A stretch of DNA of 63,650 nucleotides, filler included, from Candidatus Woesearchaeota archaeon (GTDB taxonomy: Archaea > Nanobdellota > Nanobdellia > Woesearchaeales > B72-G16): assembly GCA_003650545.1 (NCBI GenBank). It is 3 parts of 3 records of this genome, joined end to end, with 100 filler letters (N's around TTAATTAATTAA, not from the genome) between each part and the next. Parts side by side here need not be neighbours in the genome. Positions count along the whole stretch, not along the records: positions 50,185 to 63,650 come from QMQO01000035.1; 2 more parts are not named here. One strand, given 5' to 3'. Made by a program: the position numbers. This document shows positions 52,801 to 55,800 of this stretch, piece after piece (position 1 is the first letter of the stretch; each line of letters begins with the position of its first letter).

Positions 52801-55800
52801 GGCACCTCCAGATATGGATACATTTTATCCGATGAAGCAACATTAACACCGCAATCTAATATAACCCTAGATTCTGGTGTTTGCAGGAACAAACAAGACC
52901 TTCCAACCTGTCTTCCCCCTCCTAGTACACTAACTCGAATCCATTCTTGCTTTTTTTCACGGATCCAACCGTCATAAATACGGTGGCCAGTCTTATTCAA
53001 AAATTTCCTTCTATATTCAGAATTCAGATACAAAACAGAGCGTACATCCTCAATTATCTGGCTTCTAATTGCAGGCGTCCTTCTTATTAGTGGAACCCAT
53101 AATGTATTTTCTCTTATCCCCCTTAATATTGCACCCTGTTTTCCAATAGCAAGCCCAGGTTTCTTTGCTTCTATTATGACCCTAGACCGTTGCTCATCAA
53201 AGATTATCTGTGCAACTTCGGCTTCTTCTGGAATCATATCTTTAATAAGTTTTTCTGCTTTTTCCTTTGGCATTGTTATGCTAGGATCTGGCCTTAACTC
53301 TACCCTTTTCTTTATATCATCAACTATCTTTTTGATCAGACCTTCATTATTCAGGAAAAAACTTTTATCTTTAGTATAGAGCACAATGTTTGCTCCTTCA
53401 AACACAGCATCAGATACTTTATCCTTAGGCAAATATTTTAAGATCTCTGCTATAATATCAGACATTTTTTAACTACCTTTGTTAAATCCTAAATTTATTT
53501 TTTCAGAACAATTTCATTTGATATTTTCATTCAATCTAACAGTTAGTTGCTCAGTATGTACTTTTTCAACACTGTCTTTTGTGACAACCATCATATCGAT
53601 TCCTTCGCCAGAAGCTGTGTCACGTTGTAGTGCAGCATTAATGGCTTTTATAGCTAATTTTTTTGCTTCATCTAATGGAATGTTTTTATTATACAATGCA
53701 TCCAAAACACCTAATGCAAATACCATTCCTGAACCAGAACAGACGTATTCATCTTCTTCATTCAATGAACCATCTGGAAAAACATCGTAAAGATGAACAC
53801 CGTGTCTATCAAATCCCGCAACCAAAAATTGCGTAATTCCTGGAAACATCTGCCTCAGATTTGTATATACCAATGTAGCTAATAAATTCACAGCTTCTTT
53901 TACATTTACTCTTTTAGAAGTTCTAATCTCTTTTAGCTTTAGCTCGGCCTTAATGTATTTCATTAAGAGTTGTATATCTGAATAGTTTCCAGCAACAGTC
54001 AAGCCTAAATTATCAAGTATTTTAAAGACCTTTTGCACTTTTTTATTGATGATCATGCTGCCTGCTGTTGCACGTTTGTCCGCTGCTAACACTACATAAT
54101 CCTTACCTTTTATTGCTAGTGTTGTGGTTCCGGTCTTCATAGATTTTTCATCCATTTATCACACCTAAGAACTCCTTCTTTTTCCGAAGATTGAGTTTTA
54201 GTATTTAAAGTTTTTGGTTTTTCAGCTATTATGAAACCCAAGTTACCGTCTGTGTTGCGAGGCCATGACACTTAATAATCGCATCTGGCAGGGGTTGTCC
54301 CTTACGAGGATGCCAGATAACGCAATCAGAAACACATGCAGCTGACGGCAACCGAGGCAAACGCAGTTTGCCGAGAGGGTTTCATAACAGCCGGTTTTCG
54401 CTAATATTTTTTTGGCTAATATTCAAGCTAATATTTAGGCTAATATTATAAAAAGTTAGTATAACTCGAAATCCTTATCTTAATTACAAGGTTACCATGC
54501 CATATTTCATAACACAGTGATCTAATGTAATTTTCTAATTAATTTCTAATGCAACTAGGTAATAACCCATTATCTAATGCAATTGGGACATAGCTAGAGG
54601 AACATCATTCTAAATGCTAAATTAATAAGCAAATCAAATGATATGATGATTCTTAATTAGCAGATTCTCAATAACATATTCAAAACACGATTTTATCTTT
54701 GTCAGTAAAATAACAATTTGAAAATCATAAAAAACTCTCATATATTTTGCATATCCATATTTTCATATGTATTTTTCATCACCATCGCGTACAACACATA
54801 TTTATAAATCTTCTAAAAAACAATCTAAAAAAATAACCACTATAAAATTAAGAATCATTATTTAGACAGGAGATTTTAAGAAAAAGACCAAAGAACAGGA
54901 GCAGAATGAACATCCTTTCACCATATCCTAAGAACAAACAACAAGCAATTGCTGTTGATAAAGCTTATTCTAACCTAAGATCTAATAACTTTACTATTCT
55001 AGCTGATGATGTGGGCACAGGCAAGACATTTGAAGCTCTAGCTACAATACACAAAGAAATAAAACTGAAAGAACTAAAGTACACTCTTGTTATAATTATA
55101 GCTATGCAAAAAGATCTAAGGGTTAAGTGGTGTGAGGATATCAAGGAGATATTTGTTAAACAGTATTTAAAAGATGACTTTGCCGAATTCTTCAAAAATA
55201 CAACAATGGCAACTACGCTAGAACAAGCTATTAAAAATTATCCTTCTATTGCTATATGCGGCTCGTCTGCTATATCAGTAACAAAAAAAGAGAAAGAAAA
55301 CTTTACAAAGAAGTACAGAAATAACAAAGTCTTTAAAGATTATGTTGATAATCATTTATTGACCAGAAATCTGACCATAAATCAAATAGTAAGAAATGAT
55401 AAGATCAAACGCAATCTAGTTGCGAATTTTAAACGGTTCCAACTGAGAGAAAAAATAATGCAAAATTACAAGAAAGTTATTCTAATAGTTGACGAAGCAC
55501 ATAATCTGAAAGCAACAAGAAACAATGACTTCTATGATTTCACTAAACATGAGCATGAGATAAATCCTTTGAGTAGTAAAGTTCCATTTTACACCACAAG
55601 ATACAAGATTGTGGATAAAATTCTCTTCCTAACTGCAACACCATTTCAACAAACACCAAAATATTTACTAAGATTACTTGGAATACCCATAACAATCCTG
55701 AAAAAGCAGGCAAACTACCCAAAAATTCTAGAAAACATAAGAATGCAACTGGAGGGGCTTGAGGATTATAAACAAGCAAAAAATTCATATTACAGCAGAG

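Follow-up and report, generated by a model that had tools for sequence, protein, structure and literature searches.

The Element and Its Genomic Context

The window, i.e., the whole stretch of 63,650 nucleotides analyzed here, belongs to the genome of a Candidatus Woesearchaeota archaeon (GCA_003650545.1; G000 below). It contains a rod-like element of 168 bp made of nested stems and a side hairpin, located between a proteasome beta-subunit gene on the minus strand and a divergent helicase-like gene (54906-57332). The parts of the element and of the adjoining promoter are listed in Table 1. The hexamer that separates the target duplication from the TATA box is taken by us to be a BRE, from established knowledge of archaeal promoters. 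An earlier note had placed a rod with nested stems at 54225-54391; the nested stems are recovered, and the right end lies one base further out. Folded as DNA, the element has a z-score of -3.34 (1 of 200 shuffles equally good), and folded as RNA a z-score of -2.04 (6 of 200). A tandem-GA helix, which belongs immediately inside the middle stem, is decayed in this copy.

Table 1. Parts of the element and of the neighboring promoter (positions along the window)
Feature	Position	Strand	Remarks
Whole MITE	54225..54392	+	168 bp, core-forward strand; substitutions in both ends, terminal G absent at left end
Left terminal inverted repeat, IS5 type of L235/L262/L273	54225..54239	+	16-mer from 54224 has 2 mismatches vs. 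L235 and L262 ends
Right terminal inverted repeat	54377..54392	-	2/16 mismatches vs. L235/L262 ends
Left copy of decayed 9-bp target duplication, GGTTTTTCA	54216..54224	+	Putative placement from family register; first 6 bases identical to right copy
Right copy of decayed 9-bp target duplication, GGTTTTCGC	54393..54401	+	Sequence and end comparison
Middle stem, 5' arm	54242..54250	+	Pairs with 54344-54352, 8/9; sequence, folds, family alignment
Inner stem, 5' arm	54283..54290	+	8 bp with 54311-54318
Conserved core	54291..54309	+	G-run / C-run / G-run; could form two alternative small hairpins
Inner stem, 3' arm	54311..54318	+	Sequence, DNA fold
Middle stem, 3' arm	54344..54352	+	Sequence, RNA and DNA folds
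Side hairpin	54354..54374	+	7-bp stem, C-GCA-G triloop, GA on either flank; family census
Putative TATA box of proteasome beta-subunit gene	54202..54209	-	Reads away from element; presumed promoter role from motif and position
Putative BRE	54210..54215	-	6 bases separating duplication from TATA box; family logo
Proteasome beta-subunit gene, promoter abutted by element	53514..54155	-	PF00227, E 1.3e-52

In the 1.64-Mb genome, the core and the full element each occur once, in agreement with the single copy reported before. Judging from its decayed duplication and its absent terminal G, this copy is probably old and immobile. No close relative was found that would allow comparison with an empty allele of the site; among read runs, the likely source run alone covers the site, a second run touching the element by an 18-19-base piece only. 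No RNA run was listed, which has no bearing on expression. To the right of the element (54400-54450), four spaced copies of the 9-base word GCTAATATT resemble the start of the IS5 end. Elsewhere in the genome, a lone end of the window's type, whose partner end is absent, is found at C5:27266.

Distribution, Copy Numbers and Target Duplications

The core pattern occurs at no fewer than 122 loci, i.e., at least that number. Among the 80 listed loci with titles, 61 are Woesearchaeota, Nanoarchaeota or Nanoarchaeia, 16 carry the label "uncultured Methanosarcinales," which is taken as given, and three (L018, L059, L074) look like chance matches inside genes. With one mismatch allowed, the core is present in 30 of 167 genomes of its own order and in none of 49 genomes of other orders, a reversed control giving 0; this sample differs from the one behind the earlier count of 41 of 151 genomes. 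No exact core was found in IMG/VR. End matches number 99 in genome G001 and 76 in genome G006 (controls, 1 and 0). Copies are dispersed and stand in both orientations relative to genes, and 58 scanned ORFs, out of 198 listed neighbors, include no transposase and no common neighbor; the two orientations and the lack of a recurring neighbor had been reported in the earlier note.

The flanking duplications, previously given as 6-12 bp, are 9 bp long for copies ended by GG and 8 bp long for copies ended by GTA. Twelve of 30 GG...CC-ended copies are directly abutted by a 9-bp duplication, other lengths from 4 to 14 giving 0-1 copies each. Of 106 copies picked by their ends, 83 IS5-type and 20 IS66-type copies have full flanks; within one mismatch, the duplication is present in 49 and 13 of them, respectively. 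It is absent in 22 of the 83 IS5-type copies, and 12 of these 22 have a twin flank at another copy, some across subfamilies, which would reflect rearrangement through the ends or, in part, misassembly. The constant length of ~163-170 bp proposed earlier holds for the IS5-ended type and does not extend to the IS66-ended copies, which are mostly 129-137 bp long.

It should be noted that the pooled counts include unpublished genomes, namely G008 (seed protein L204 and some MITE copies), G323 (L237, L291), G140 (L224), and G415 and G416 (short-type examples). This concerns the pairing and strand census, the copies picked by ends, the TATA register, the family logo, the orientation census and the nearest-neighbor comparison.

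Terminal Repeats and Probable Mobilizing Transposases

Partner elements were searched via DDE transposases in high-copy genomes and then order-wide, and those sharing ends with the MITEs are classed as DDE_Tnp_1/IS5 and IS66. The ends of the window element, which are close to those of L235 and L262 (Table 1), differ from the other IS5 end types at 6-12 bases. This match rests on L235, L262, L270 and L273, none of which is flagged as coming from an unpublished genome. The matching partners are complete IS5-family elements of ~1,020 bp with exact 9-bp target duplications, and L235 encodes a 305-aa protein that exceeds the cut-off of the NCBIfam IS5 model NF033579. Other MITE end types pair with other IS5 lineages (e.g., L286/L292, L232/L237, L293/L295). 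In total, the MITE family uses at least four IS5 end types, with 9-bp duplications, plus IS66 ends, with 8-bp duplications: the GTA-ended copies L349, L356, L357, L363, L368 and L016 agree in their ends with the IS66-family elements L333, L336, L337, L329 and L334.

The window element therefore has ends that match a partner and a duplication of the 9-bp length, decayed in this copy, and belongs to a non-coding, dispersed, multi-copy family, as IS5-family MITEs do. Since the ends and the 9- or 8-bp duplications of the copies match autonomous IS5 or IS66 elements, each copy is an ordinary MITE of its own transposase. The earlier description of a mobile, non-coding, MITE-like family with a shared centre is upheld. 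Likewise, the terminal repeats do differ between copies, as had been stated; they are, however, mostly the ends of different transposases (IS5, IS66) of the same order rather than one drifting repeat.

The window's genome, which is 85% complete, yielded no IS5 transposase. Fragments of the partner are seen elsewhere: a deletion derivative of the matching IS5 is present in G006 (L202), and its left end adjoins two G001 copies. Derivation of the MITE interior from the partner by internal deletion was rejected: the stop codon of L235-type elements falls within the right end and the core is absent from them. Such an origin is not a requirement for every MITE.

Several other mobilizers were also considered and rejected. 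The 1.76-kb element L183 of G006 is a MITE whose core is interrupted by an IS4 with ends of its own. For REP/RAYT or IS200/IS605 (HUH) systems, the duplication is out of place and no repeat-flanked Y1 gene was seen among the best 30 Y1 loci; no core lies beside the Y1 gene at the 28 of these 30 loci that were listed, and four genomes carrying the short type described below yielded no Y1 gene. For an IS110/IS1111 bridge or seek RNA, no core was found beside the DEDD recombinase genes of 23 IS110 loci, and identical loops occur at different targets. An integron attC site has RYYYAAC...GTTRRRY ends and stands in a co-oriented array near an integrase; the window copy is devoid of the required ends, and copies are dispersed in both orientations. 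As to Ssn/SRM, no small repeat-flanked GIY-YIG gene over the cut-off was found in a small sample of five genomes (0/5).

Insertion Upstream of TATA Boxes

At 20 of 58 IS5-type sites, an outward TATA motif begins precisely 15 bases away from the end of the element, and at nine more it begins at 17, for an expectation of ~0.7 per offset derived from random intergenic positions of the window's genome; 25 of the 58 sites miss the strict TATA pattern. At IS66-type sites, TATA starts 14 bases out in 5 of 12 cases. For both types, six bases, as wide as a BRE, separate the end of the duplication from the TATA box. The proteasome-gene promoter of the window conforms to this register, which the earlier note had missed. 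Elements face the promoter in both orientations (16 vs. 10).

The same register is kept by complete, cargo-free IS5 elements, of which 9 of 13 fall within offsets 13-18, seven of them at 15 (one of the 13 matches, L203, is a false boundary as judged by eye). Therefore, the interior of the MITEs, hereafter the cargo, is not the aiming device. Evidence is thinner for IS66, only 3 of 8 complete elements matching TATA at the offset as read by eye. For a group of longer IS5-type transposases (L204, L211-L226), some of which have a zinc-finger-like region at the N terminus, mostly the right end alone was found; the TATA register is also seen there, 6 of 19 at offset 15.

Structure of the Cargo

The ~110-nt interior is a separate module whose geometry is fixed across the MITEs: a stem is followed by an asymmetric bulge and a short helix, then by two loops of ~18-20 bases, and finally by the inner stem with the core. 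As already observed in the earlier note, the arms of a copy pair better with each other than with arms swapped between copies (middle stem, 23.5 vs. 14.7; inner stem, 13.8 vs. 9.1; 117 non-redundant copies). Pairing reaches 95% in the helix that adjoins the IS66 ends on their inner side, and six of its nine pairs show double changes, in an alignment of 24 rows where one row with wrong coordinates (L034) was kept in the counts. Among 15 G006 copies, the loops diverge by 0.175 per site and the inner helices by 0.0 and 0.01; the stems of two young G001 subfamilies show no extra constraint. A kink-turn was rejected, as judged by eye: the bulge and the GA pairs are 2 bp apart, and one subtype has normal pairs in place of GA.

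The core had been called invariant. Of 82 standard-length copies selected by end sequence, 26 have the exact core and 47 have it within two mismatches; it had appeared invariant because the earlier search used the core itself as its pattern. In variants from separate frames (L128, L370, L232), the G-run, the C-run and the second G-run change together, as a three-part match, and these coordinated changes suggest that the core forms two alternative small hairpins. The orientation of the core relative to the arms is the same in all resolved copies (75/75 and 12/12). Other small double-hairpin repeats, often with the short stems kept, are found in or beside the core of L139, L151, L156, L160, L177, L346, L362, L376, L382, L390 and L393.

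The non-redundant copies also show a strong strand asymmetry. In the middle stem, tandem GA/GA mismatches are found 19 times and TC/TC never; GA-GNA-GA hairpins number 21 on one strand vs. 1 on the other, and GNA triloops 17, with none on the opposite strand. G-T and A-C mismatches are equally frequent (15 vs. 14), and energy models give no clear strand preference (18 and 20 of 33). GNA-type mini-hairpins are described as far more stable in DNA than in RNA and as occurring at single-strand priming sites (PMC13037366). Together with the covarying inner helices, the tandem GA pairs and GNA mini-hairpins confined to one strand point to a cargo that would fold on one DNA strand, as single-stranded DNA rather than RNA.

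Carriers of the Cargo

IS5 frames, IS66 frames and a frameless form all carry the cargo, which one IS5 subfamily also has in its 3' region. That the middle also occurs with the ends of an unrelated enzyme family suggests that it has a job of its own. The frameless short type, which contains the inner stem and the core and has no duplication, accounts for 28 of the 122 core loci listed, sorted by eye. Its junction is of the GTAG-plus-hairpin kind, head-to-head pairs are found, and it is seen inserted in other copies, so that another enzyme probably moves it. The shorter related type announced by the earlier note on C3 is indeed present (C3:43070-43215), without terminal repeats or duplication, and its core is replaced by another, long hairpin.

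In the 315-aa IS5 subfamily, the module lies behind the transposase gene, on the sense strand. The module or a frameless carrier occupies the 3' region in nine of 15 readable sequences, as judged by eye, and the other six have unrelated AT-rich DNA there. This 3' region of ~170-210 bases (L440, L442, L448, L450, L228, L231, L232, L237, L239) comprises a small, conserved hairpin and, behind it, a variable slot, which often holds a short-type element. The 5' leaders of the IS5 elements L286, L290 and L291 form a long hairpin covering a G-rich stretch that resembles a ribosome-binding site.

Elements are found stacked: the end of another element lies 8-12 bases from the end of four copies, and at L443 an IS5 of the window's type lies in the 3' end of another IS5. 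Two IS5 end types each include both bulge subtypes of the cargo, and seven IS5-framed representatives have the subtype that is typical for IS66 frames. For 27 of 43 cargos (8.4 expected), the nearest neighbor shares the end type, and for 41 of 43 it shares the family, one row (L005) being mislabelled IS66. As cargo type mostly follows frame type, reframing, judged from these sequences, is real but rare; its presumed route is considered below.

A possible third frame, with GGCAC ends and an 8-bp duplication (one copy, one mismatch), is seen at L027 and L001. In the window's genome, structured sites of ~150 bases with AAC...GTT ends lie near a tyrosine recombinase gene (C2:25312, 32973, 34992); this array was assigned to a different family, though its basal loop geometry resembles that of many short-type copies.

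Proposed Mechanism and Alternatives

The element is a real IS5-type MITE, new as a family, and its unusual part is a cargo common to unrelated transposase frames. It is very probable, from the end match, the duplication length and the bursts of tens of copies, that it is a non-autonomous MITE of a ~305-aa IS5-family DDE transposase. This enzyme would recognize the 15-16-bp ends in trans and duplicate 9 bp of target. The window element inserted directly upstream of the putative BRE-TATA of the proteasome gene; bound TBP and TFB would set the register of insertion. Unrelated transposases aim at one spot, so that elements stack end to end, and the cargo would thereby occasionally gain new ends; this is the likeliest route of reframing. 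As for the role of the cargo, we see about an even chance that one DNA strand folds while single and serves in cis as a signal for priming or processing, which would raise the copying of the element itself. No enzyme binding the cargo was found. More tentatively, the interior might be a portable single-stranded DNA signal, e.g., a priming site, that boosts the spread of any transposon frame carrying it and is handed between transposase families sharing a docking spot upstream of TFB/TBP-bound promoters. Taken as a whole, an IS5-moved MITE with a promoter-adjacent register and a portable cargo acting in cis is the best explanation, and we consider it likely.

The same MITE could carry a cargo that works as RNA, either in a read-through or IS 3'-region transcript that stabilizes or ends messages or as a two-loop guide. 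The covarying helices, the two loops of fixed length (~18-20 nt), a core loop that reads as a UNCG-type tetraloop in some variants and the sense-strand position of the module 3' of the transposase gene in the 315-aa subfamily would all suit an RNA. However, G-T mismatches are not in excess over A-C mismatches, the GNA triloops that mark one strand are of a kind described as more stable in DNA (PMC13037366), copies lie in both orientations relative to genes, and, as the earlier note had found, no Rfam family comes near threshold for the window element. Moreover, insertion is not guided by the loops, since 14 near-identical G001 copies reside at distinct target sites. A function as RNA thus appears unlikely, and a single-stranded DNA signal is preferred.

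Alternatively, the cargo may be a functionless passenger, derived from an old palindromic repeat that was captured a single time and has been inherited since, with stems tidied by arm-to-arm template switching or gene conversion. This would agree with the tracking of frame type by cargo type, with the shuffling of left and right loops among G006 copies (rho -0.22) and with the many copies whose core is replaced or interrupted, once by the whole IS4 of L183. Template switching should, however, erase mismatches and flip loops; instead, asymmetric bulges, tandem GA pairs and loop lengths persist across frames, the core never flips, and matched triple changes of the core occur in separate frames. 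A passenger is therefore considered slightly less probable than an RNA. Far less probable again is a single new family in which an HUH, IS110 or tyrosine recombinase enzyme would read the centre, the ends being incidental. The frameless short type, with its junction, head-to-head pairs, nested insertions and absence of duplication, is what such an enzyme might leave; yet the ends and duplication lengths of the window type match IS5 and IS66, and the surveys of IS110, Y1 and GIY-YIG genes given above, within their respective samples, brought no candidate. We thus retain the IS5-moved MITE with a portable cargo.

Comparison With Known Systems

MITEs are usually viewed as two transposase handles around filler. 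Here, a strand-specific fold of the interior persists in both IS5 and IS66 frames, so that selection may act on a non-coding interior for a role in mobility. The many independent insertion sites fix the register at archaeal promoters to the base, which makes a link between TBP/TFB and transposases testable, and the flank exchanges between copies suggest that the elements also rearrange these small genomes. In the literature searched, most subscription papers being outside the search, no description was found of this family, of a cargo common to several IS families, or of TATA-register insertion in archaea. The catalogue of 18,091 archaeal MITEs, which reports one Woesearchaea genome with 105 per Mb (PMC11602168), may well list sequences of the family; an archaeal IS survey leaves MITEs aside (PMC13343696).

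Strand-specific small hairpins recall REP/REPIN sequences with RAYT (PMC3733652) and Ssn-related motifs (PMC11893778), and the frameless type shares with them a GTAG-plus-hairpin junction and head-to-head pairs. Unlike these systems, the window type is bounded by terminal repeats and a duplication of 9 bp, and the loci and genomes surveyed yielded no Y1 or GIY-YIG gene flanked by the repeat. GNA-type mini-hairpins within a multi-hairpin single-stranded fold are also a feature of the G4 origin and ssiA priming signals, as portrayed in PMC13037366; this is a likeness of motif only. With respect to target choice, TnGBS, ISLre2 and ISKra4 are reported to insert 15-17 bp upstream of sigma-A promoters (PMC3942029). 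The MITEs resemble them in the fixed distance upstream of a core promoter that is left intact. They differ in their IS5- and IS66-type partners, where those elements have Mutator-like transposases, in the archaeal BRE-TATA that they adjoin and in the occurrence of both orientations.

The closest parallel in archaea involves ISC1058, a member of the IS5 family. SM3A of Sulfolobus is presented as a 164-bp MITE dependent on ISC1058 (PMC3718332), and IS-dependent MITEs are on record in archaea (PMC3718332, PMC10969869). Like MITEs of the SM3A type, the elements described here are short and non-coding, have ends that match an IS, are flanked by a duplication and reach many copies, the partner being sometimes absent from the genome. 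Unlike them, they have an interior that did not arise from the partner IS by deletion and that is common to IS66-framed MITEs and to a frameless form.
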